IMG/VR virus record: IMGVR_UViG_3300031555_001876
DNA: 55,230 bases
Direction: 5' to 3' (one strand)
Origin: a virus
Below the pieces are notes generated by a model. It saw only the letters and a program-made list of their open reading frames with translations, was not told the origin of the DNA and made no database searches. The position numbers and the translations under genes are program-made. This document shows, in pieces, positions 38,501-50,675 of the stretch; within the stretch, counting starts at the first letter, position 1, and each line of letters opens with the position of its first letter.

Positions 38501-38800
38501 TTAATTAAAAAAATCATTATTTGATTTTTTATAAAAAATATTATATAATATATATGTAAGATAAGTCGGAATCTTACATATAAGACTGACACCCTTATTT
38601 TTTTCAGAATTATTTCTTTGCGAAACTATCAAGTTATGAGGTTCTTGATAGTATAATAAACTAAAAAACCTCTCTATTTTAGATAGAGAAATTCTTTATT
38701 GACAAATTTAAAAAAATATGATATAATATATATACAAAGTGAGAGAAAACCTCACTAATAAATAAAAATTTTAAAAATGAAAGGTTAAGGTGTTTATACT

Positions 38801-40288: not shown

Positions 40289-41299
40289 GTGGAAAAATTA
40301 AAGCCTAATGATAGAGCAACTTTAGAAGGTATTTTTAGTCTTACTCAAAAAGGACTTTTAAATACTATGGAAAATTATTTGCGCAATAAGTATAAAAATG
40401 TTGTAAGAACTAAAAGATATTTATATGCGGTTGGCACTATTCCGATAGGATTGGTTGCGCATTGCGATACGGTTTTTCCAAGACCCGCAGAAGATGTTTA
40501 TTATGATAATGAAAAGAATGTAATGTGGAGTCCATATGGCTTGGGTGCTGATGATAGAGCAGGTGTATGGGCGATGATTAAAATTATTCGTTCTGGCTTA
40601 CGGCCGCATATTATTCTTACTACCGACGAAGAAAAAGGAGCAATCGGCGCAGAAGCATTGATTAAAAACTGCCCTACTCCTTTTGCTGATATGAAGTATC
40701 TTATTCAACTTGACCGCAGAGGCGCAAATGATTGTGTATTTTATGATTGCTATAATGCTGATTTCGTAGAATATGTTGAATCATTCGGTTTTTGTGAAGC
40801 ATATGGAAGTTTTAGTGATATTAGTATGATTTGCCCAAATTGGAAAGTAGCAGGAGTTAATCTGTCTATTGGATATATAGATGAACATAGTTATAGTGAA
40901 ACTTTGTTTATTGGGCATATGAATAATACCATTAATAAAGTTATTAGAATGTTAAAAGATGCTCATAATTCTAAATACTATGAATATATTGAAAATCCTT
41001 ATGTATATGATTGGTATAAAGATTATCTAATGAGAAATGCGGCACATATTAAACCTAATCCTAATTCTAAAGTAGTTTGTAGTAAATGCGGCCAACCTTA
41101 TGATGATTATGATTTATTCCCCGTAAAGTTGGCTGATGGTACTACTGGATATGCTTGTCCTAATTGTATTTCTATGTTTGTTTGGTGTGAAAGATGCGGC
41201 GAAGCATATGAATTGACAGAAAATAGTGTAAGTGATATTCTTTGTCAAGATTGTGCAGATATTCTATTTGGGAAGGAACCAGTAAAAGTAAATGTATAA
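40289..41299 (+). CDS. Metallopeptidase-like protein with M28/M42-type HxD and DDxxG motifs and three C-terminal zinc ribbons.
   Basis: Motifs VAHCDTVF and GLGADDRAGV. The C-terminus carries CSKCG...CPNC...CERCG...CQDC. Confidence 0.45.
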   Translation: MEKLKPNDRATLEGIFSLTQKGLLNTMENYLRNKYKNVVRTKRYLYAVGTIPIGLVAHCDTVFPRPAEDVYYDNEKNVMWSPYGLGADDRAGVWAMIKIIRSGLRPHIILTTDEEKGAIGAEALIKNCPTPFADMKYLIQLDRRGANDCVFYDCYNADFVEYVESFGFCEAYGSFSDISMICPNWKVAGVNLSIGYIDEHSYSETLFIGHMNNTINKVIRMLKDAHNSKYYEYIENPYVYDWYKDYLMRNAAHIKPNPNSKVVCSKCGQPYDDYDLFPVKLADGTTGYACPNCISMFVWCERCGEAYELTENSVSDILCQDCADILFGKEPVKVNV

Positions 41300-42746
41300 T
41301 ATTAATGAGATTAAAGAAGACTTTATTAAAGTAATTAAATATTCTCAAAATATCGCAAATCCAAAAGTGGATAAGTTGTTTGATAAATGGTATGAATCTA
41401 AAAAGTATTTTATTAAAGCAATGGGCGGAAATCTTTGGTGTGAAACAGATGAAATTTGCACTTTTTCACTTTCTGAAGAAGAACGTGCTTCTCGAGTTCA
41501 TAGTTTTATTGATATGCTTGAAGATGTTTATAATCATTATGATTTAGCAGAATTTATTTTAGATAATATTAAAACTTTCTTTTCTAATGAAGTATCTTGT
41601 TTGCCGCGTATATGTGAGAATGAATGGTATATAGAACACCCTGAAAATAATCCTTATAAAGATATTAAACTTGGGATGAAACTTATTAAAGCATTTAAAT
41701 TCTTTGAACAAGATAAAGTAGTGCTTGAAACCATCCAAAATGAAGCCAGTCGTCTTATCCAAGAGGATAAGATTGAAGGTAAATTGCGCGTTTCGGTTCA
41801 TCCGCTCGACTTCTTGAGCGCAAGTGAGAATACTTACAATTGGCGTTCTTGTCACGCACTTGATGGAGAATATAGAGCAGGTAATTTATCTTATATGTGC
41901 GACCGCAGTACTGTAATGGTATATCTTTGCACTGAAGATAAAAAGAAATTGCCTCGTTTTCCTGCGTCTGTTCCTTGGTATAGTAAAAAATGGAGAATGT
42001 TGCTTCATTTTAGTGATAATTGGGATATGATATTTGCGGGACGGCAATATCCTTTCTTTTCTATGACCATTCTTGACACTTTTACAAAAAAACTTTTCCC
42101 TAAAACAAAAATGTATGATGCTACAGAAGACAAAAGAACTTACTGGAGTAAATGGAGTAATTATTATGTAAAGTCTGTTGAAGATAATGTAGCAGATGAA
42201 ATTCACGATCTTGACCAAAGATATGTGCCGATTGCAGGTAAATTAATTGCTTTAAAAGATTTAGTAAGCGATGGAGTAAATTCTCGGCATTATAATGATA
42301 TTATTTATTCATCTTGTTATGTACCCTATTATATTAAGCGCAGAGCGCGCAATTGGGGCGATGAATATGATAATGTATTTTTGCCTGAATTGGCTTTTCA
42401 TATTGGAGAGTCAGTATATTGTTTGTGTTGTGAAGAAGAGAAAATTTTAGGTTATGGACAAATGGGATGTCCAAAATGTACTGAACAAGATCCATATGCA
42501 CGAGATATGGAACATTATGTAACTTGTACTTGCTGTGGGGCTACTATATGCCTTGAAGATGCTTATCGTGTAAATGGCGATGAATATGTTTGTTATAGAT
42601 GCAGAGATAAAAATGGTTATTGGTGTCCTAGGTGTAATAATTATTATTTACCTACTCATATGAAATTTAACATTACACGAAATAAAGCGTATTGTTTGAG
42701 TTGTAATGAAGATATTGGATATTTTTTTGATGATGAAGAGGAGTAA
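41292..42746 (+). CDS. Large hypothetical protein with C-terminal multi-zinc-ribbons. It is a paralogue of the gene at 36713..38334.
   Basis: See 36713..38334. Confidence 0.55.
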   Translation: MYNINEIKEDFIKVIKYSQNIANPKVDKLFDKWYESKKYFIKAMGGNLWCETDEICTFSLSEEERASRVHSFIDMLEDVYNHYDLAEFILDNIKTFFSNEVSCLPRICENEWYIEHPENNPYKDIKLGMKLIKAFKFFEQDKVVLETIQNEASRLIQEDKIEGKLRVSVHPLDFLSASENTYNWRSCHALDGEYRAGNLSYMCDRSTVMVYLCTEDKKKLPRFPASVPWYSKKWRMLLHFSDNWDMIFAGRQYPFFSMTILDTFTKKLFPKTKMYDATEDKRTYWSKWSNYYVKSVEDNVADEIHDLDQRYVPIAGKLIALKDLVSDGVNSRHYNDIIYSSCYVPYYIKRRARNWGDEYDNVFLPELAFHIGESVYCLCCEEEKILGYGQMGCPKCTEQDPYARDMEHYVTCTCCGATICLEDAYRVNGDEYVCYRCRDKNGYWCPRCNNYYLPTHMKFNITRNKAYCLSCNEDIGYFFDDEEE

Positions 42747-43064: not shown

Positions 43065-43256
43065 TTGGGCAAAAGTTTTAATTATAAAGTAGTAATTTTT
43101 TATAACTAATAATCTTTATTTGATTTTTTATAAAAAATATTATATAATATATATGTAAGTTAAAGAGGTCTTTAAGGTATTGGCGCGCTGACCTCTTATA
43201 AAAAAAACGCACGCATACTGCGGTTAACCTTCCGTATCACCAAAAAGGTACTAAAT

Positions 43257-43338
43257 GCCGAATTGGTGGAATTGGTAGACACGTATGATTTAGGATCATA
43301 TGCTATGCGTAAGAGTTCGAGTCTCTTATTCGGCACCA
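43257..43338 (+). tRNA. tRNA-Leu (anticodon TAG), type II, with encoded CCA.
   Basis: Acceptor pair gccgaat/attcggc, anticodon stem tatga/tcata with loop tttagga, a long variable arm, and T-arm aagag-ttcgagt-ctctt. Confidence 0.7.
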
Positions 43339-43735
43339 AAAAATCATTATTTGATTTTTTATAAAAAATATTATATAATATATATGTAAGGTAAAGAAAA
43401 AAGAAAGTCCTCTTTATCTTCTAGTTAAAAAATCAAAATTTGATTTTTTAAAAAAAATATGGTATAATATTTATACAAAGTTTAAAAAATAATACTGAAA
43501 CAGTTCAGGTCCAATCGGCTAATTTGGTAAGTGAGGTAAATGAGGTTGGTTTGGGGCTTTACTCTCCCCTGTAAAACGCCTACGCTTTTAAAGTAATACT
43601 GAAAAATGTATTCGCCAAGTTTATAATATTATTTAAATAGTTTGGTAGTACCCAGAAAATGAGTGTTGAGCATTGGGAGATGGGTTAAAGGAACAAAAAG
43701 ACTCTATGAAGCAGACAACCTCGCCAAACAAATAC

Positions 43736-43810
43736 GGGAGACTAGCCTAGTGGTTCAGGCAGCGGACTGTTAATCCGCCTAGCAAGGTTCAATTCCTTGG
43801 TTTCCCGCCA
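43736..43810 (+). tRNA. tRNA-Asn (GTT).
   Basis: Acceptor pair gggagac/gtttccc, D-stem gcct/aggc, anticodon stem gcgga/tccgc with loop ctgttaa, T-arm caagg-ttcaatt-ccttg, then g and CCA. Confidence 0.7.
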
Positions 43811-43931
43811 TTAAGCCTTAACACGGATTTTGTAAGTTTAAACTACCACCGGTCTTGGATATCGATGCCGAGAATATGTGGCTTGCGGAAAAGGCTATAC
43901 AAAGAAGCGAAGTAAAACTTACATTTTATAT

Positions 43932-44007
43932 GGTGCTATAGTATAGAGGCTTATTATGCCGGACTGTCTCTCCGGTGACCGGGGTTCGATTCCCCGTAGC
44001 ATCGCCA
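43932..44007 (+). tRNA. tRNA-Asp (GTC), with an atypical D-arm.
   Basis: Anticodon stem ccgga/tccgg with loop ctgtctc, T-arm cgggg-ttcgatt-ccccg, acceptor pair ggtgcta/tagcatc, then g and CCA. Confidence 0.55.
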
Positions 44008-44603
44008 ATACGCAGATAGGATGGTTTTAAACTGCGTTCCCAAAGTTAAACTTAAAACCACTTTATATGCGCCGGTAGTTTAAAGAAAACGACTGCTGAG
44101 GCAGGGGATGTAGGTTAGGCTCCTTCGCGGCGCAGCCCAAGTGTGAAGTATATACGATGAACACTTATTTTTCCAATAGTGTCTAGTCCTGGTTGACCTC
44201 GACAAAATGGCAAAGACCGAGTTTGGGTTCAACTCCCATTTAGACTGCGCCAGAACGGGTCAAGGCAAAGAAATAAGATGCCCATTAGTTGAATAGAGTT
44301 TTCGGCATACTTTCTCGTGGCTTATACAAATTACAACATAAGCCAATAAAAAAGTATCGATAACCGCAAATGTTGGCGGTATAGAAATGGGAACCCTTAT
44401 GACTTGGAACGTAGGAGGAGAAACGTCCAGCACGCAGTTTTATCATCCTAACTGCTTTATCAACAAACGATGACCTATTTTAGGGAATCCAACCCAGTTT
44501 CTACGGTTAAGGAAGCAACTTAAAAATGGACAGTGATGCTGCTGAGGGGTCCGGAACCCTAAATGCTTTGTTCGCTTCGCTCACAAAGCGGAGAATTTAA
44601 TAT

Positions 44604-44689
44604 GGGTCAGTAGGAAAATTGGTAACCCCACGAGTCTGTAAAACTCGCGCCTAACGGCACTGTTAGTTCAAGTCTAACCTGGCCCACCA
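44604..44689 (+). tRNA. tRNA-Tyr (GTA), type II.
   Basis: Acceptor pair gggtcag/ctggccc, anticodon stem cgagt/actcg with loop ctgtaaa, a long variable arm, T-arm gttag-ttcaagt-ctaac, then a and CCA. Confidence 0.6.
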
Positions 44690-44994
44690 AATGGAAATAA
44701 CTGGAAAAGTGAAGTTATTAGGTAAAAGTAGATTGGTTGGGACTTTTACCAACCTGATTTAGAGTCTGGAATTTTTAATAAGTTAGTCAGAATTAAATGA
44801 GGAAACTTATTTATAAATTAAAATCTCTACTAAATCGGGCAAATTTTAAAAATTTTTTCTTGATTTTTTTAAAAAAATATGGTATAATATTTATAGAAAG
44901 TTAAGAAAGGAATTGATAAATATGTTTGATGATTTTATGATTCAGATTCAGTCCGATGAAATCGCTTCTATGATTAATTGGGAGGAGATTTTTG

Positions 44995-45162
44995 ATGAAG
45001 AAACAGAAATTTGATAAACGTATTTTGAAAAAGAGTCCAGAAGAATTGGAAGCCTATCTTCAATTCCAAAGACGAGGTTCTGTAGTAGAGAATAAGAAAG
45101 GTAAAGGTTCTTATAAACGAAAACCCAAGCACGCAAATCAGCAATATGATAGGTGTGCTTAA
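44995..45162 (+). CDS. Small basic protein of 55 aa embedded in the tRNA array.
   Basis: Ribosome binding site GGAGGAG precedes ATG 44995. The protein is Lys/Arg-rich. Confidence 0.4.
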   Translation: MKKQKFDKRILKKSPEELEAYLQFQRRGSVVENKKGKGSYKRKPKHANQQYDRCA

Positions 45163-45167
45163 TATAT

Positions 45168-45244
45168 GACGCTTTCTTCTAACTGGTTCAGGAAGCCGGC
45201 CTCTCAAGCCGGTAATGTGGGTTCGAATCCCGCAAGCGCCACCA
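45168..45244 (+). tRNA. tRNA-Glu (CTC)-like.
   Basis: Anticodon stem ccggc/gccgg with loop ctctcaa, T-arm gtggg-ttcgaat-cccgc, acceptor 3' strand aagcgcc, then a and CCA. The 5' acceptor strand has one mismatch. Confidence 0.5.
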
Positions 45245-45280
45245 GTCGACAAAAGACATATACAGCAAATTCCACTTGTT

Positions 45281-45356
45281 TTCACGGTTAGCCCAGTTGG
45301 TCTTAGAGCGCCTGCCCTGACCCGGTGGGAGGTCGATGGTTCGAGTCCATCACTAT
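45281..45356 (+). tRNA. tRNA-like gene of uncertain identity, possibly Val-GAC. No CCA is encoded.
   Basis: Canonical D-arm (ta-gccc-agttggtctta-gagc) and T-arm (gatgg-ttcgagt-ccatc). The anticodon stem is ambiguous. Confidence 0.35.
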
Positions 45357-45386
45357 GAGCAATAAGTTATGTCTTGTTATTAATAT

Positions 45387-45463
45387 GGTTCCGTAGACGA
45401 ACAGGTAAAGTTACTACCCTTTCAAGGTAGAGATTGTGGGTTCGAGCCCCACCGGAATCACCA
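45387..45463 (+). tRNA. tRNA-Glu (TTC).
   Basis: Acceptor pair ggttccg/cggaatc, anticodon stem ctacc/ggtag with loop ctttcaa, T-arm gtggg-ttcgagc-cccac, then a and CCA. Confidence 0.6.
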
Positions 45464-45545
45464 TTTAGGCTTGTCCGCCTATGCATTTTCATTTCCTTTC
45501 ATTGATATAGTCCTGGGTATGACTGAAACTGCCCTTTTTTAATAT

Positions 45546-45622
45546 GGCGGGGAGGACAAACGGTTAAGTCGCAGGCCCCATAAGCCTTGAGGAGTGGGTT
45601 CGACTCCCACCCGTCGCTACCA
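45546..45622 (+). tRNA. tRNA-Met/Ile2-like (CAT). The acceptor pairing is imperfect.
   Basis: D-arm gac-aaacggttaa-gtc, anticodon stem aggc/gcct with loop cccataa, and T-arm gtggg-ttcgact-cccac. Confidence 0.4.
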
Positions 45623-46238
45623 TTTAAAGGCAGAATTGATATTACAGCAAATCTTTTGGTTTCATATTTGGGTCAATCCCCGGATACGAGGTTCAAGTCC
45701 TTGATTTTCTGCCTTGAACAAGAAAATTTAATAGGTGTTTTAGACGGCGTTACTGCAATTTTATTACTAATAGAATTGTATTAAAAGAAAAAAATTTTAT
45801 TGTGTTTAAATAAAATTTTAGGTAAGTCGGCCGACTAATAAAGTTTTTAAAAAGAAGCCGTCTAGTAAGACTTCCAACAGGAGAACCAAGGACTATTGTA
45901 TGCGGGCCTTGGCTGGAAGAAAAGCCTATCCTTTCTTATATAGTTAAGTATATAAGGAAACAAAAACTATGTCCTGCTATCGAGAGTTTTTACATCCTGA
46001 CCCAAAGAATGGTTTGTTTTTTACTCGATAGTTTTTTTATATATACAATTGAATAAAGGAGGTATTTAAATGATTATCGGAGATATCGATGATTTTATTT
46101 TTGCAGATGAAGAAGCATATGTCAGTGAGAGATAATTGCTTTTTCATCAATTATCTTAATGCGCCGAGTCGTTAAAGCGATTCGCTGGTCCCAAGCCCAG
46201 AGTTCGGGTTAACCGAAAACCGCAGAGGGAGATAATAT

Positions 46239-46330
46239 GGAGAGGTACCCAAGGGGTCATAAGGGGGCGGTCTACTAAACCGCTAGCCGGAACATCCCGG
46301 GCGTGGGTTCGAATCCCACCCTCTCCGCCA
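46239..46330 (+). tRNA. Type II (long-arm) tRNA with anticodon loop CTACTAA. The anticodon reads ACT, so the call is Ser-like but unusual.
   Basis: Acceptor pair ggagagg/cctctcc is perfect. Anticodon stem gcggt/accgc, a 19-nt variable arm, T-arm gtggg-ttcgaat-cccac, then g and CCA. Confidence 0.55.
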
Positions 46331-46333
46331 TAT

Positions 46334-46408
46334 GGGGTTGTAGTTTAAAGGTAAAGCGGAGGACTTATAATCCTTTGTTGCTTGGTTCAAGTCCAGCCAG
46401 CCCTACCA
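46334..46408 (+). tRNA. tRNA-like gene with a TAT anticodon loop (cttataa), possibly Ile.
   Basis: Acceptor pair ggggttg/cagccct with two G-U pairs, T-loop ttcaagt, and CCA. Confidence 0.4.
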
Positions 46409-46493
46409 TCCTATAAGACGCACACAGCAATTTTATATATATTCATTCTTAACCTTTTAAATTAACGATATGATTATGGCGTCTTGATTTTAT

Positions 46494-46569
46494 GTTCCAG
46501 TAGCATAATGGATAGTGCATCGGATTTCTAATCCGAGTTGTCAGGGTTCGAGTCCTTGCTGGAACGCCA
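46494..46569 (+). tRNA. tRNA-Arg (TCT).
   Basis: Acceptor pair gttccag/ctggaac, anticodon stem tcgga/tccga with loop tttctaa, T-arm caggg-ttcgagt-ccttg, then g and CCA. Confidence 0.7.
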
Positions 46570-46592
46570 TTATATAAAAAAGGAGAATATAA

Positions 46593-46832
46593 ATGAAATT
46601 TACTAACGCAAAGTAGATTCAAGATTTTCTCGAAGCAGTTAATCAATGTAATAGTGAAGTATATTTAATCAGTCCAGAAGGAGATAGATTTAATTTAAAA
46701 TCTTCTTTATCTCAATATGTTGCTATTGGAGCATTATTAGGTGAACGTGGCGATTATTTAGAATTATTCTGCAATGACAGAGTTGATGAATCTTACTTAA
46801 TGAAATTTTTATATGAACACCCAGAGGTTTAA
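46593..46832 (+). CDS. Small protein of 79 aa with one in-frame TAG. It lies immediately upstream of the poly-Cys / radical SAM cassette.
   Basis: Ribosome binding site AAAAGGAGAATATAAATG. TAG at 46614-46616. A perfect palindromic terminator gtttaattaattatcttaattaattaaac lies at 46827-46858. Confidence 0.45.
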
Positions 46833-46976
46833 TTAATTATCTTAATTAATTAAACCTTTTTTCTATTTTATTTGACTTTTCTCTTTTTTTATTGTATAAT
46901 TTAATTGGGTATAATTGTGTAATAATAAAAATTTTATCTTGAAGATATATAGAATTATAAATGAAGAGGTGAGCAA

Positions 46977-47687
46977 ATGGCTTGTATAGATGATGCTTGC
47001 GCTGCAAGTTGCACTGGCGATTGTTTTACTACTTGTACTGGCGGATGTAGTGGTGGATGTTATACTGGATGTACAGGATGCGGAGGTAACTGTACTGGTA
47101 CTTGTGAATCTGATTGCGCAAAAGGATGTTCTTCTACTTGTAGTCCTGCAGGTGCTTGTTATTCAAACTGTGCGGTAGACTGTCAAGGTACTTGTAAGGG
47201 TACTTGTGATGGAAGTTGTACTGGCGGCTGTGATGGTAGTTGTTCAGGTGATTGTTGGGGTACTTGTACTGGCACTTGTAGTGGAGGTTGTAAAGGCTCT
47301 TGTACTGGCTGTTCTGGTACTTGTAAGAGTACTTGCGCGACTGGGTGCGCAGTAGGTTGTTCTACGACCGCAAATATAGAAACGTTTAATCAATTAGACG
47401 CATTAAGTATTTCAATAAGTGACTTAATGTATGCAAGTGAAATAGAAATTATTGAAAAATCTGCATTAAATGAATTAAAGAGACGTAGTATTACTACTAA
47501 TAATACTGATTTAACTGTTAATGCAGGGGATGAAATTCTTCGAACTATATTAGAGTCTATCTATAATAAGTTAATTGATTTGAATTATAGTCCAAATGCT
47601 AATGATAATAATCAAGATGCTACAAAAGCAGATGAAATAAACAGATATATTACTTTTATAAAAACAAAATATCAAGAGGAAGTTTAA
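46977..47687 (+). CDS. Poly-Cys protein A of 236 aa. About 35 Cys sit in C-x3-C tandem repeats with spacers rich in T, G, S and D. The C-terminal domain of about 100 aa has no Cys.
   Basis: Promoter ttgact...tataat at 46872-46905 and ribosome binding site GAGGTGAG. The repeats include CTGDC FTTC TGGC SGGC YTGC.... Confidence 0.7.
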   Translation: MACIDDACAASCTGDCFTTCTGGCSGGCYTGCTGCGGNCTGTCESDCAKGCSSTCSPAGACYSNCAVDCQGTCKGTCDGSCTGGCDGSCSGDCWGTCTGTCSGGCKGSCTGCSGTCKSTCATGCAVGCSTTANIETFNQLDALSISISDLMYASEIEIIEKSALNELKRRSITTNNTDLTVNAGDEILRTILESIYNKLIDLNYSPNANDNNQDATKADEINRYITFIKTKYQEEV

Positions 47688-47690
47688 TTA

Positions 47691-48974
47691 ATGAAAAAAG
47701 GTCAAGAAAGTTATAGTGAATTTATTGGAAGAATTTATCCTGATTCTCAAATGGTAAAATCAGTTACATTACAGGTAACTGAAGATTGTAATTTATGTTG
47801 TACTTATTGTTATTAGATTAACAAAAAGAAAAATTCTATGTCATATGAAACTGCTATAAAGTTTATTGATTATATTTTAAAAGGTGATAGTGATTATTTA
47901 AACTTTGAAAATAGCGGTGGTTTTGTTTTAGACTTCATTGGTGGAGAACCTTTGTTGGAAGTTGATTTAATTTGTGATGTTTCTAAATATTTAATCGAGA
48001 AAATGATTAGAGAAAATCATCCTTGGTTGCATAAATTTAGAATTTTAGTAGGCTCAAACGGCACTTTATATTTTAATGAAAAATTCCAAAAATTATTAGA
48101 AACATATGGTAATTGGATAGTATATGATGTAACCATTGACGGCAATAAAGAATTGCACGATAGTTGTAGAGTATTTCCAGATGGCAGCGGCAGTTATGAT
48201 TTAGCAGTTGCGGCTATGAGAGATTATAGTCACGGTTTTAAGGATAGATTATCTTCTAAAATAACTTTAGCACCTGAAAATTTACCTCTTATGAATGAGG
48301 CATTGCGGCATTTTATTTCTCTTGGCTTTACTGATATTAATGCAAACTGCGTTTTTGAAGATGTTTGGTCTATTAAAGATGCTAAAATCTTTTATCAGCA
48401 ATTAAAAGAATTTGCTGATTATGTATTAGATAATGATTTAGATGAAAAAATTTATTGTTCTTTATTTAGAGAAGAGGCTTTTAGTCCTTATACTGGTAAT
48501 AATGATAACTGGTGTGGTGGCACGGGTAAAATGCTTGCTATGAACCATACTGGTAATTTATATCCTTGTTTAAGATATATGGAATCTTCTCTTGGTGATA
48601 GTGTAGAACCTATTATTATAGGTCATATTGATACTGGTATTGGTTCTAATGAAAAAGAACAAGAATGGATAAAAGGATTACAAGCAATTACTTATACAAG
48701 TCAATCTCCCGAAGAATGTTTAAATTGTCCAATTGCAGATGGATGCGCTTGGTGCTCTGCTTATAATTATCAAGTTTTTGGTGAAATAAATAAAAGAGCA
48801 ACTTTTATTTGTATAATGCATAAAGCAAGAGCATTAGGCAATTATTATTATTGGAATAAATATTATAAGAAATATAATAAAGAAGAAAGAAAAAAAGTTT
48901 ATATCCCTAAAGAATGGGCTTTAGAAATTATTTCTGAAGATGAATTTAATTATTTAATTGAATTATCAAAATAA
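47691..48974 (+). CDS. Radical SAM / SPASM-domain enzyme. It resembles an anSME or peptide-maturase-like thioether- or crosslink-forming rSAM.
   Basis: CNLCCTYC is a CxxxCxxC motif, followed by the GGEPLL SAM-binding motif. The C-terminal segment CLNCPIADGCAWCSAYNY is a Cys-rich auxiliary-cluster region. ATG 47691 follows AGAGGAAG. An in-frame TAG at 47814-47816 lies right after the CxxxCxxC-Y. Confidence 0.75.
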
Positions 48975-48990
48975 TAATTAAAAAAGGAGG

Positions 48991-49758
48991 TTGGAAAATA
49001 TGGCAAACGGTAATAATTGTATAGATGATGTTTGTACTACCAGTTGTGTTGGTGATTGTTTTACTACTTGTACTGGTGCATGCAGTAGTGGTAATGTATG
49101 TAAAGGCGGATGTACTGGTGGATGTTATAAAACTTGTACTGGTGGATGCGGTGGCGGATGCGGTAATGATTGCACAGATACTTGTAATGATACTTGTAAT
49201 ACAACTTGTGTGAAAACTTGTGCTGATGATTGTACTGGTGGATGCAAAGAAACTTGTACTGGCGGATGTGATAATACTTGTAGTAGTTGTTCTTATGGTT
49301 GTGCTTCTGATTGTTACGCTTATTGTGTGGACTATTGTAATAATAGTTGTAGTGGAGGATGTAAAGAAGGTTGTAGAACAGTTTGTTCAAATGCTTGTAA
49401 AGATGATTGTGGAGCCGCTTGTAAATCAAGTAATCAAGAAACCTTATTAGTAACACCAGTTACTAATTTAAGAAATAACTTAAAAATTGGTGCAATAGTT
49501 CACGCAGATGAATTAGATTTAATAGAACAAGCCCTTATATTTGAATTAGAACGCAGAAACTTAACTTCAACTACAGGAGATACGCAATTAAGTAGAGATA
49601 CTGCGGTTTTAGCAAATATAATCAAATCACTTCACGAAAAAAGTGAAAAAGCATCCTATAACAAAGATAGTAACCAATTCTTAATAGATGATGATGAATT
49701 AGTAGGCTATATTGACTATGTTATAACATTATTTGGTCAATATGTACAACAATCTTAA
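48991..49758 (+). CDS. Poly-Cys protein B of 255 aa. It is a paralogue of protein A, with about 45 Cys in C-x3-C repeats and a Cys-free C-terminal domain.
   Basis: Ribosome binding site AAAAGGAGG. The repeats include CTTSC VGDC FTTC TGAC.... Confidence 0.7.
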   Translation: MENMANGNNCIDDVCTTSCVGDCFTTCTGACSSGNVCKGGCTGGCYKTCTGGCGGGCGNDCTDTCNDTCNTTCVKTCADDCTGGCKETCTGGCDNTCSSCSYGCASDCYAYCVDYCNNSCSGGCKEGCRTVCSNACKDDCGAACKSSNQETLLVTPVTNLRNNLKIGAIVHADELDLIEQALIFELERRNLTSTTGDTQLSRDTAVLANIIKSLHEKSEKASYNKDSNQFLIDDDELVGYIDYVITLFGQYVQQS

Positions 49759-49962
49759 TTTGATTTTTTTTAAAAAAAATGATATAATATATTTACAAAG
49801 TTAAGGAAAAGAAAAATTAATTTTTCTTTTCCTTAACAGAAGAAAATTTGATTTTTTAAAAAAAATATGATATAATATATTTACAAAGTTAAAGACTCAA
49901 ACAGCAATTTTATTAAACATCTGAAATGGGTTCTGATAAATTTTAAGGAGTCTTGTTAATAT

Positions 49963-50036
49963 AGAGGATGTAGTGTAATGGCAACACGCCACATTTGGGA
50001 TGTGGAATCGCGGTTCAAATCCGACATCTTCTACCA
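49963..50036 (+). tRNA. tRNA-Pro (TGG).
   Basis: Acceptor pair agaggat/atcttct, anticodon stem ccaca/tgtgg with loop tttggga, T-loop ttcaaat, and CCA. Confidence 0.55.
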
Positions 50037-50039
50037 TAT

Positions 50040-50116
50040 GCGGGATTGGCGCAGCAGGTAGCGCATCTGACTTACATTCAGGAGGCTCATAGGTTCAAAT
50101 CCTATATCCCGCACCA
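50040..50116 (+). tRNA. tRNA-Val (TAC).
   Basis: Acceptor pair gcgggat/atcccgc, D-stem gcgc/gcgc, anticodon stem tctga/tcagg with loop cttacat, T-arm atagg-ttcaaat-cctat, then a and CCA. Confidence 0.7.
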
Positions 50117-50283
50117 AAGTTTCTTCATAAATCGCTCCAAAGACACATACAGCAAATTTTGTTTAGTAAAACAATGTGTTATAGGTTCGAGTCCTATCTT
50201 GTGAGTATTTTGCGAGTCGACCAATTGGTAGGTCAATTGTCTAAAATGTGTCTTGTAATTTTCCCTTCGTTCAAATTAAATAT

Positions 50284-50359
50284 TGGGGATTGGTGTAATT
50301 GGTAGTCACATTTGACTTTGACTCAAACAGCGTAGGTTCGAATCCTGCATCCCCAGCCA
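50284..50359 (+). tRNA. tRNA-Gln (TTG).
   Basis: Acceptor pair tggggat/atcccca (U1-A72), anticodon stem tttga/tcaaa with loop ctttgac, T-arm gtagg-ttcgaat-cctgc, then g and CCA. Confidence 0.7.
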
Positions 50360-50461
50360 CGCCAGTGAAGAGTGAACAAATGTAGGCACACTGGGGTATC
50401 AATAAAAGGCGGTATGTGTGGTTAAAGAGGGCAGACCTTAATGCAACCTCATTTTTAATAT

Positions 50462-50549
50462 GCCGCTGTGGTGGAACAGGTAGACACCACAGACTTAAAA
50501 TCTGTTGCTCTTTTTGGGCGTGCCGGTTCGAGTCCGGCCAGCGGCACCA
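50462..50549 (+). tRNA. tRNA-Leu (TAA), type II.
   Basis: Acceptor pair gccgctg/cagcggc, anticodon stem acaga/tctgt with loop cttaaaa, a long variable arm, T-arm gccgg-ttcgagt-ccggc, then a and CCA. Confidence 0.7.
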
Positions 50550-50675
50550 TATGATTAAAATCAACTAACATTTTGTTAGTTGATTTTTTTTATTTGTTTG
50601 GACCGACCGGCAACAAACGCAAGAATCGAAAACCCAAATCAAAAAATCGATTTAGAAATTTTAAGGAGGATTTAT

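Follow-up and report, generated by a model that had tools for sequence, protein, structure and literature searches.

How does a phage that places TAG in frame within its genes read this codon when neither of two blocks of tRNA genes on the same DNA offers a CUA anticodon, and is a long-armed tRNA with the unusual anticodon ACU, found in one of these blocks, involved in it? These questions are raised by a 55,230-nucleotide stretch of viral DNA (IMG/VR virus record IMGVR_UViG_3300031555_001876), the whole of which is called the window below. Taking its parts together, we consider it probable that the tRNA genes form an ancestral operon split by an insertion, in a phage in which TAG stands for glutamine, with a tRNA-Ser(ACU) that would read AGU, an amber suppressor located outside the window, and spacers that would be structured RNAs.

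In-frame TAG is concentrated at the left end of the window, where it accounts for 25 of the 2158 codons of the minus-strand packaging genes and other late-type genes, versus 8 of 6933 codons elsewhere; for these late-type genes, the statement of an earlier, sequence-only reading that TAG is used heavily is borne out. The left-end genes (terminase, portal, a sigma-like factor and two unknowns) contain three to seven in-frame TAGs each, seven being found in the terminase and six in the portal, and CAG is depleted in the late-type genes (5 CAG for 25 TAG). At codon 42 of a radical SAM gene, immediately after the motif CxxxCxxCY, TAG occupies a position where CAG is found in 51 and CAA in 29 of 80 homologues (about 50% identical). 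Eight sites of the terminase carry TAG only in relatives (82% identical), and there the window has CAA or CAG at six and AAA at two. When the seven TAG sites of the window's own terminase were compared with three relatives, two were CAA or CAG in at least one of them and one (position 273) was AGT. The 120 closest database homologues of the terminase have glutamine at the window's TAG sites, which was not considered as evidence because these proteins were translated with a table in which TAG is glutamine; their DNA does not yield them under the standard code. As judged from the aligned codons, TAG is shown to be a sense codon for glutamine, mostly used in packaging and late-type genes.

The structural genes match the SPbeta families YonG, YonD, YonB, YomW, YomV and YomU, and the closest relatives are known from metagenomes of animal guts; the terminase relative whose source was traced is from a pig gut. 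One protein of the window also occurs on a contig of 185,543 nucleotides, from which the window was estimated to cover about 30% of a genome of about 185 kb. A GIY-YIG homing endonuclease gene at 33240-33959 (+) contains three in-frame TAGs amid otherwise TAG-poor early or middle genes.

The long-armed tRNA gene at 46239-46330 is as first described, with a perfect acceptor stem, a perfect T arm and the loop CUACUAA, which places ACU at the anticodon. Its seven-base-pair acceptor stem (GGAGAGG/CCTCTCC) is followed by G73 and CCA, its D stem has three base pairs and a large loop, its anticodon stem has six base pairs with the loop C32-U33-A34-C35-U36-A37-A38, and its long variable arm forms a stem of its own (4-5 base pairs); the score with the Rfam tRNA model RF00005 is 53.1 bits (gathering score 29 bits). 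Seryl-tRNA synthetase (SerRS) relies on the discriminator G73 and on the pairs G1-C72, G2-C71 and A3-U70, all three of which are present in the acceptor (GGA...UCC), and does not read the anticodon. Inspection of the isotype thus gave serine identity features throughout (class II arm, G73, stems), and by these features the gene is a serine tRNA of the standard bacterial type, not a recoding device. ACU is the exact Watson-Crick complement of AGU, the second most used serine codon in the genes counted (UCU 203, AGU 187, AGC 50), and the tRNA would read AGU through a Watson-Crick A34:U pair. The suggestion that it may decode an unexpected codon was not upheld, given its standard serine body, the pairing of ACU with AGU, the alignment of TAG with glutamine and the presence of the same type in dozens of unrelated phages. 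No particular meaning attaches to the CUA at loop positions 35-37, since a tRNA with a GCU anticodon and the same loop has C35-U36-A37 too.

The gene is identical in an independent assembly from the Joint Genome Institute (L081). In arrays syntenic with that of the window, the serine slot is occupied by Ser(GCU), and the window gene shares 75% identity and its D arm with the Ser(GCU) of one of them (L232), which fits a G34-to-A34 switch within one serine tRNA lineage, the direction of the change being presumed. An origin from a UGA-type serine tRNA (suggested by the near absence from phages of this stem with GCU) was dropped in view of this identity and of the shared D arm.

Recurrence of Ser(ACU) was searched in IMG/VR using a 15-nucleotide anticodon-arm pattern (CGGTCTACTAAACCG). 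The pattern matched 95 loci, in 76 of which it lay inside a tRNA-Ser(ACU) called by ARAGORN, mostly within tRNA arrays; an exact pattern of the window's own serine tRNA gave no match in this collection. These 76 loci represent 39 distinct sequences, 50-77% identical to the window gene (one of them atypical and short), which come from many environments and mostly have G73 and CCA. Among cultured phages, Rhizobium phage RHph_TM30 has a gene annotated in GenBank as 'tRNA-Ser(act)' (locus EVB93_277), and the Salmonella jumbo phage 7t3 also carries Ser(ACU). The same pattern combined with a T-loop requirement was found at 15 places in 185,579 bacterial and archaeal species (one genome each), consisting of several Polynucleobacter contigs and contigs of metagenome-assembled genomes, two of which resemble phage arrays; for serine tRNAs of cellular life, the remark that an A34 anticodon is unusual holds. 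Ser(ACU) is a minority type in phages but a real one, as Ser-GCU is usual in arrays that were not selected for ACU.

Nothing specific on tRNA-Ser(ACU) in phages was found in the literature. According to a review (PMC8007984), two-codon boxes have no ANN anticodons in any cellular life, phages being without these tRNAs too; going by gene sequences, our scans of IMG/VR and of cultured phages contradict the phage part of this statement. Other A34 tRNAs were found in the phage arrays fetched (Phe-AAA, Tyr-AUA, Cys-ACA, Asp-AUC and Gly-ACC), and their anticodons suggest that phages generally tend to decode NNU codons by Watson-Crick pairing. IMG/VR loci with A34 tRNAs include L243, L248, L284, L331, L100, L108 and L120. 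An ACU anticodon that is common in phage arrays and nearly absent from the species genomes corrects the review and points to phage-specific decoding or to defence evasion.

Using ARAGORN, 14 tRNA genes were called in the window, all on the plus strand, ten of them at 43257-46569 and four at 49963-50549. Allowing introns gave no further tRNA, and a relaxed threshold added only a Met(CAU)-like gene at 45545-45618. The RF00005 model retrieved 13 genes at 47.9-67.7 bits and two items at about 33 bits (45282-45359 and 45547-45618). The final tally, all on the plus strand, is 13 solid tRNA genes (anticodons in Table 1), to which a marginal Met-like gene, a tRNA-like module and a relic below the threshold are added. 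The tRNA arrays announced in the sequence-only reading are thus real; its figure of at least 15 tRNAs is reached only with marginal items counted, its list of parsed tRNAs had overlooked Ile(UAU) at 46334-46408, and the encoded CCA that it noted is present on every real tRNA and on the Met-like gene, as read from the sequence. Within their families, AGA, UUA, CAA and GAA outnumber all other codons, and AUA, GUA and CCA are well used though not in first place, a pattern by which the tRNA set appears to supply anticodons for the A/U-ending codons preferred by an AT-rich genome, with the code unchanged. In a large AT-rich phage, such arrays are in themselves nothing unusual.

No CUA anticodon was found among the 15 tRNA calls of the window (ARAGORN with introns and lowered threshold; Rfam at E<=10), nor anything tRNA-like inside the arrays when both strands were scanned for NU-CUA-NN loops closed by a five-base-pair stem. 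Five CUA tRNAs from other phage arrays had no homologue in the window by BLAST, nor did searching with the window's tRNA-Gln backbone reveal a variant with CUA. The syntenic arrays (L232, L234 and L235, with 23-25 tRNAs) also lack a CUA anticodon, and the regions flanking the terminase gene in relatives contain no tRNAs. One array with a CUA tRNA that seemed related (L182) was set aside, as it is not a relative of the window. The first observation that no tRNA in the window carries CUA has thus withstood these searches, which at the same time disfavour the idea that a suppressor is hidden in the unparsed segments. In a survey of TAG-recoded phages (Borges et al., bioRxiv 10.1101/2021.08.26.457843), TAG suppressors were detected in only 40% of the genomes, and the undetected ones were suggested to be non-canonical. 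Since the window covers about 30% of the genome and published detection reaches only 40%, a missing suppressor is unremarkable; an amber suppressor, if the phage has one, would lie outside the window.

Syntenic loci were reached via homologues of a 484-amino-acid protein encoded directly upstream of the array. In two of them (L234 and L235, 49% identity), an unbroken array of 23 tRNAs keeps the order of the window (Leu-UAG, Asn, Asp, ArfA, Glu-CUC, Glu-UUC, Met, Met, Ser, Arg-UCU, Pro-UGG, Val-UAC, Gln-UUG), and L232 has 25. Arg(UCU) and Pro(UGG) are 32 nucleotides apart in L234 versus about 3.4 kb in the window, 3.2 kb of which is a protein-coding cassette. Because the L234 array is continuous at this point, what had been described as two large arrays was considered as a single ancestral array interrupted by an insertion. 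The promoter-like TTGATT-N17-TATAAT upstream of the first tRNA recurs, with starts at 43351, 43440, 44860, 49760 and 49848, and the operon would be transcribed from these repeated promoters.

Compared with the arrays of its relatives, that of the window is a reduced version which, by alignment, has lost tRNA genes. Degenerate tRNA-like relics are present at 44069-44134 and at about 44180-44253, in a stretch that has no counterpart in L234, where a tRNA-Ala is found instead. The Met-like gene aligns as the orthologue of a normal tRNA-Met of L234. The "ambiguous tRNA-like genes" of the first description are mostly not tRNAs; they are such relics or tRNA mimics enclosed by a stem.

These mimics belong to a recurrent spacer element. 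The motif ACWGCAAWTY has six matches in the window, all on the plus strand and inside the arrays (about two are expected by chance, both strands considered), and each match is preceded by AAGAC and two to four variable bases, the complement of which, followed by GTCTT(G), is found 50-120 nucleotides downstream. The six elements so delimited (E1 to E6, Table 1) have closing stems of 7-11 base pairs. In 31 distinct members (from the window, L232, L234 and IMG/VR), 90% of the stem cells are paired, a share inflated by the pre-filtering of IMG/VR members for a stem of at least 7 base pairs, which does not affect the diversity of pair types. Changes on both sides were counted in 46 cells, at least four pair types occur at variable positions, and the covariation score was reached by none of 500 shuffles. 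The cap (stem and motif) is present in at least about 25 further IMG/VR loci, nearly all in tRNA arrays and on the tRNA strand, often 5-11 nucleotides before the next tRNA or 2-12 nucleotides after the previous one. The motif and the AAGAC/GUCUU base of the stem are conserved in phages without other DNA similarity, and three arrays that contain the element (L236, L310 and L314) also contain CUA tRNAs. The spacers would be small structured RNAs released from the tRNA transcripts by normal tRNA processing.

The interiors of the elements vary. E1 encloses a degenerate cloverleaf (called 'Val-GAC' by ARAGORN; 33.1 bits with the Rfam tRNA model) in normal order, without CCA and with C at position 37, E4 and E5 contain AU-rich hairpins, and a transcript from the promoter at 49848 would begin with E5. 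E6 has a permuted domain (25.8 bits with the Rfam YrlA model, E 8.5e-4 in a local search) and, together with the adjoining tRNA-Gln, is 77% identical to positions 18495-18695 of L234. L234 itself gave full-length YrlA matches of 44, 41 and 34.5 bits, the last at 18505-18615. An AS hairpin flanked by T and D stem-loops was seen in E6, at 12417-12540, 12741-12857 and 18505-18615 of L234, and in L255, L262 and L320, and this permuted domain is absent from E3, E4 and E5. As three of the six elements enclose tRNA-like modules, they were considered as Y-RNA-like (YrlA-like) in architecture. YrlA RNAs were described by Chen et al. 2014 (PMC4201824) as having near-invariant T and D stem-loops with an AS hairpin, a stem joining both ends, the motif GNCGAAN0-1G (the proposed Ro60/Rsr contact), and a gene located within about 4 kb of that of Ro60/Rsr on the same strand. 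Since the elements lack this motif and stay under the Rfam gathering score, and no Rsr gene was found in the window proteins and gene tables of relatives that were searched, they are called Y-RNA-like and not assigned to YrlA; from motif and covarying stem, they may form an undescribed RNA family.

Two other non-coding stretches of the array, at 44246-44569 (+) and 45867-46141 (+), are 80-87% conserved with L234, more than the adjoining tRNAs. They have no Rfam match, and the fold of 44240-44603 reached only z = -1.8. With the array as query, a search of INPHARED gave tRNA-to-tRNA matches only and no spacer homologue.

Upstream of tRNA-Ser(ACU) lies a candidate twister ribozyme (E 1.2e-6 region-wide), the score of which stays under the gathering score of 67.2. 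The core is kept (UAA, GCC, GGUCCCAAGCCC, AAA and GAGGGA) and so is P1/P2/P4 pairing, with one non-canonical pair; the shortfall in score results mostly from a 14-nucleotide hairpin inserted relative to the Rfam model. Cleavage is predicted at U46157/A46158 from the known twister consensus, and because the candidate is located upstream of the tRNA with its cut near its own 5' end, it cannot make a tRNA 3' end. It follows a 21-codon mini-ORF (open reading frame; 46071-46136) with a strong ribosome-binding site. At the equivalent position of L234 there is no room for a twister, and none was found upstream of the other Ser(ACU) genes examined, which rules out a standing twister-Ser(ACU) cassette. 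No match of the hepatitis delta virus (HDV) ribozyme family was found in the arrays (Rfam, E<=10).

An ArfA-like ORF lies earlier in the array (PF03889, 29.9 bits for a cut-off of 25.5, E 3.8e-7), with a KGKGSYxRKxKH-type motif in the form VENKKGKGSYKRKPKH, its own promoter at 44860 and its stop codon five nucleotides before tRNA-Glu(CUC). It is also present before Glu(CUC) in L234 and L235. ArfA is an alternative ribosome-rescue factor that recruits release factor 2 (RF2), which does not read UAG; the presence of an apparent RF2-recruiting ArfA in a TAG-recoded phage is suggestive. Nothing specific on phage ArfA was found in the literature.

Could Ser(ACU) be an amber suppressor or recoding tRNA in disguise, for instance with the CUA at positions 35-37 as its anticodon and serine inserted at TAG? 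CUA does occur twice in the loop CUACUAA, a serine body could carry any anticodon since SerRS ignores it, and site 273 of the terminase aligns with AGT, a serine codon, in relatives. We nevertheless regard this as scarcely credible, because TAG aligns with glutamine in 80 of 80 radical SAM homologues and with true CAA or CAG codons at most terminase sites, the standard seven-nucleotide loop with U33 fixes positions 34-36 as the anticodon, C35-U36-A37 is expected in a GCU tRNA as well, and the same tRNA is found in RHph_TM30 and 7t3, phages that are not known to recode a stop codon. A suppressor hidden in the array spacers, canonical or non-canonical (intron-containing, split or with an odd loop), is very unlikely in its turn. 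About 2.5 kb of the arrays is neither coding nor tRNA, T-arm-like hairpins are seen in several spacers, and Borges et al. allow for non-canonical suppressors; but ARAGORN with introns and a lowered threshold added the Met-like gene only, Rfam at E<=10 gave no more tRNAs, stem-closed CUA loops are absent from the arrays, the tRNA-like modules of E1, E2 and E6 carry GAC or no anticodon arm, and neither the 23-25 tRNAs of relatives nor the homology search with five phage CUA tRNAs led to a CUA tRNA. The phage might also do without a dedicated suppressor, TAG being read by the near-cognate host tRNA-Gln(CUG) once release factor 1 (RF1) is neutralised, with ArfA as part of the toolkit. In RF1-deficient E. 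coli, UAG is mainly read as glutamine by near-cognate tRNA, TAG replaces CAG and not CAA in the late-type genes, the ArfA gene is kept in the arrays of relatives, and both the lack of CUA tRNAs in these arrays and in the window and the 40% detection rate agree with this account. It is unlikely, given that only about 30% of the genome is covered, that L236, L310 and L314 share the spacer family yet contain CUA tRNAs, that no RF1 inhibitor was identified, and that the substrates of ArfA are non-stop complexes and not ribosomes that pause at an intact UAG. Bolder still is the proposal that a lineage with SPbeta-like structural genes reads TAG as glutamine without a CUA tRNA and that the operon island (A34 tRNAs, ArfA, twister, mimic RNAs) forms an undescribed translation-reprogramming module, which we hold to be quite improbable. 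As to how TAG-recoded phages without a detectable suppressor switch code, a lineage with conserved CUA-less arrays and a conserved ArfA provides a concrete test case.

Defence offers another explanation of A34, in that a phage serine tRNA differing from the host Ser(GCU) at position 34 would escape an anticodon nuclease. Phage tRNAs do evade anticodon nucleases through changes in the loop, Ser(ACU) is found more often in viral contigs than in cellular genomes, and phage arrays contain other A34 tRNAs (Phe-AAA, Tyr-AUA, Cys-ACA, Asp-AUC and Gly-ACC) that cells are said to lack. No nuclease acting on position 34 of tRNA-Ser(GCU) was identified, however, and the bias of AGU over AGC is a sufficient explanation, so that evasion appears improbable here, although the two ideas do not exclude each other. 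For the spacers, the alternative is that they are mere processing scaffolds (substrates of RNase III, P or Z) or decayed tRNA genes without a function of their own. The distance of 2-12 nucleotides to adjoining tRNAs, the degenerate cloverleaves in some elements and the reduced state of the window's array are in line with such an origin, which is possible though doubtful: otherwise dissimilar phages have kept the motif and the AAGAC/GUCUU base of the stem, and since the interior varies freely while the stem covaries, selection on the cap itself is indicated, not decay. The apparent junk between phage tRNA genes contains a recurrent family of structured RNAs with Y-RNA-like tRNA mimicry, which may be an undescribed player in the control of host RNA metabolism by phages.

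Several points weigh against the combination that we favour, of a split operon with an AGU-reading Ser(ACU) and structured spacers. The codon read would change if A34 were deaminated or carried another modification, and L081, at 100% identity, may represent the same population, in which case it excludes an assembly artefact less strongly than recurrence across phages does. The Met-like gene, with its C33, may be impaired or a pseudogene. The twister candidate is sub-threshold in Rfam and so is the spacer family (YrlA scores of 25.8-44 bits for a gathering score of 69), the pre-filter mentioned above favours paired stems, the YrlA motif GNCGAAN0-1G is replaced by ACWGCAAWUY in the elements, and no TROVE match indicating Ro60/Rsr was found in the ten window proteins scanned with Pfam (three of them of at least 400 amino acids) or in the gene tables of L232-L235. 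That these RNAs are made and charged is a prediction from sequence.

Table 1. Features of the tRNA operon and its insertion (window coordinates; bits are Rfam scores, with RF00005 for tRNAs)
Feature	Coordinates	Strand	Remarks
Promoter-like TTGATT-N17-TATAAT	43120..43148	+	upstream of first tRNA
tRNA-Leu(UAG)	43257..43338	+	ARAGORN; 58.2 bits
tRNA-Asn(GUU)	43736..43810	+	ARAGORN; 58.9 bits
tRNA-Asp(GUC)	43932..44007	+	ARAGORN; 55.3 bits
tRNA-like relic, sub-threshold	44069..44134	+	28.4 bits; anticodon arm shrunk to tetraloop hairpin
tRNA-Tyr(GUA), class II	44604..44689	+	ARAGORN; 47.9 bits
ArfA-like ORF	44992..45162	+	TTG start; 56 codons, 55 amino acids from Met; Pfam PF03889
tRNA-Glu(CUC)	45168..45244	+	ARAGORN; 54.3 bits
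E1	45253..45375	+	closing stem AAGACATA/TATGTCTT, motif ACAGCAAATT; encloses degenerate cloverleaf 45282-45360
tRNA-Glu(UUC)	45387..45463	+	ARAGORN; 63.4 bits
Met(CAU)-like gene, marginal	45545..45618	+	C33 for U33; 33.4 bits; ARAGORN at relaxed threshold only
E2	45627..45715	+	closing stem AAGGCAGAA/TTCTGCCTT, motif ACAGCAAATC; only a T-arm-like hairpin inside
E3	45740..45865	+	closing stem TTAGACGGC/GCCGTCTAG, motif ACTGCAATTT; AU-rich hairpins inside
Candidate type-P1 twister ribozyme	46153..46233	+	RF03160, 41.6 bits; 5 nucleotides upstream of tRNA-Ser(ACU)
tRNA-Ser(ACU), class II	46239..46330	+	ARAGORN; 53.1 bits; G73, CCA, loop CUACUAA
tRNA-Ile(UAU)	46334..46408	+	ARAGORN; 60 bits
E4	46414..46486	+	closing stem TAAGACGC/GCGTCTTG, motif ACAGCAATTT; 5 nucleotides after tRNA-Ile, 7 before tRNA-Arg
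tRNA-Arg(UCU)	46494..46569	+	ARAGORN; 63.5 bits
Protein-coding cassette splitting the array	46593..49758	+	79-amino-acid ORF, two Cys-rich repeat proteins, radical SAM enzyme
Cys-rich repeat proteins	46977-47687 and 49000-49758	+	paralogous
Radical SAM enzyme	47691-48974	+	in-frame TAG at codon 42
E5	49892..49954	+	closing stem AAGACTC/GAGTCTT, motif ACAGCAATTT; 8 nucleotides before tRNA-Pro
tRNA-Pro(UGG)	49963..50036	+	ARAGORN; 51.6 bits
tRNA-Val(UAC)	50040..50116	+	ARAGORN; 67.7 bits
E6	50140..50254	+	closing stem AAGACACAT/ATGTGTCTT, motif ACAGCAAATT; permuted T arm-hairpin-D arm domain of YrlA type
tRNA-Gln(UUG)	50284..50359	+	ARAGORN; 61.7 bits
tRNA-Leu(UAA), class II	50462..50549	+	ARAGORN; 58.1 bits
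Intrinsic-terminator-like hairpin	50557..50587	+	14 base pairs and T run; ends array after last tRNA

The cassette that splits the array, with its order Cys-rich protein, radical SAM enzyme, Cys-rich protein, looks from its sequence like a substrate-maturase-substrate set. Dense CxxxC repeats make up the N-terminal halves of both Cys-rich paralogues (no Pfam family was found for the one at 46977-47687), and the C-terminal Cys motifs of the radical SAM enzyme give it a SPASM-type look. This gene was rejected as a route to close relatives, since the 80 IMG/VR loci with homologues about 50% identical have no tRNAs and share only that gene.

Directly upstream of the array, two paralogous proteins of 543 and 484 amino acids are encoded at 36703-38334 and 41292-42746 (+). 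Both have an HPxD...W.SC motif and C-terminal CxxC clusters resembling zinc ribbons; they match no Pfam family, have thousands of metagenomic homologues, and keep their site beside the tRNA array in relatives. Just 3' of the first of these genes, 135 nucleotides at 38377-38511 are 73-76% identical to 25 Enterococcus phage genomes of about 150 kb, in which the matching DNA is mostly unannotated; this is the sole DNA similarity to cultured phages in that 6-kb query and, by its conservation, may represent a small RNA or the end of a mobile element. Further to the left, the region at about 9.6-20.3 kb has a higher G + C content (0.38-0.43), short genes, few long ORFs, more than ten near-consensus TTGACAA-N17-TATAAT promoters and families of 20-40-nucleotide direct repeats (e.g. 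TTGACTAAATCGCTAAAG). By this composition, it resembles a region for early takeover of the host, with repeats that recall operators.

The phage tRNA array, the code 15 phage and the phage Ser(ACU) are each of an already known kind. Worth following are the enrichment in phages of an anticodon avoided by cells, the family of stem-ACWGCAAWUY tRNA mimics, and the association of ArfA and a twister candidate in the tRNA operon of a recoded phage. With the code 15 gut phages (crAss-like, Lak, Agate and others; Borges et al., bioRxiv 10.1101/2021.08.26.457843), the window shares a low G + C content, the concentration of TAG in packaging and late-type genes, the alignment of TAG with glutamine, and early genes in the standard code; it differs from them by its SPbeta-type structural genes and in that no CUA suppressor, release factor or aminoacyl-tRNA synthetase was seen in its 55 kb. 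The Ser(ACU) of RHph_TM30 and 7t3 resembles that of the window in its class II serine body and in the arm CGGUCU-ACU-AAACCG, with G73 and CCA in most phage copies, whereas the other phage Ser(ACU) genes are only 50-77% identical to it and none follows a twister candidate.

A small self-cleaving ribozyme in the tRNA operon of a recoded gut phage is also known from the theta ribozymes (minimal, HDV-like) located next to phage tRNAs (Kienbeck et al. 2024, PMC10879173), whose nested double pseudoknot begins no more than 5 nucleotides from a tRNA 3' end; the candidate described here is, unlike these, a twister upstream of its tRNA, with a predicted cut near its own 5' end. The spacer elements share with YrlA (RF02553), which is also known from mycobacteriophages, a closing end stem, a conserved 5' motif, a modular interior and, in several of them, a permuted tRNA-like domain; they depart from it by the motif ACWGCAAWUY, by the many members without a tRNA-like domain, by the lack of a Ro60/Rsr gene found nearby, and by their location in the tRNA slots of arrays. 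As in T4, T5, the Bacillus phages TsarBomba and Chewbecca, and jumbo phages, the array is a same-strand cluster of the kind that comprises 10-25 tRNAs with encoded CCA, anticodons biased towards the phage's own A/U-rich codons, and interspersed small ORFs and homing-endonuclease-like genes. What sets it apart from the arrays of these large virulent phages is that it belongs to a TAG-recoded phage and combines six stem-ACWGCAAWUY elements, a twister candidate and an ArfA gene with a split by a radical SAM cassette.

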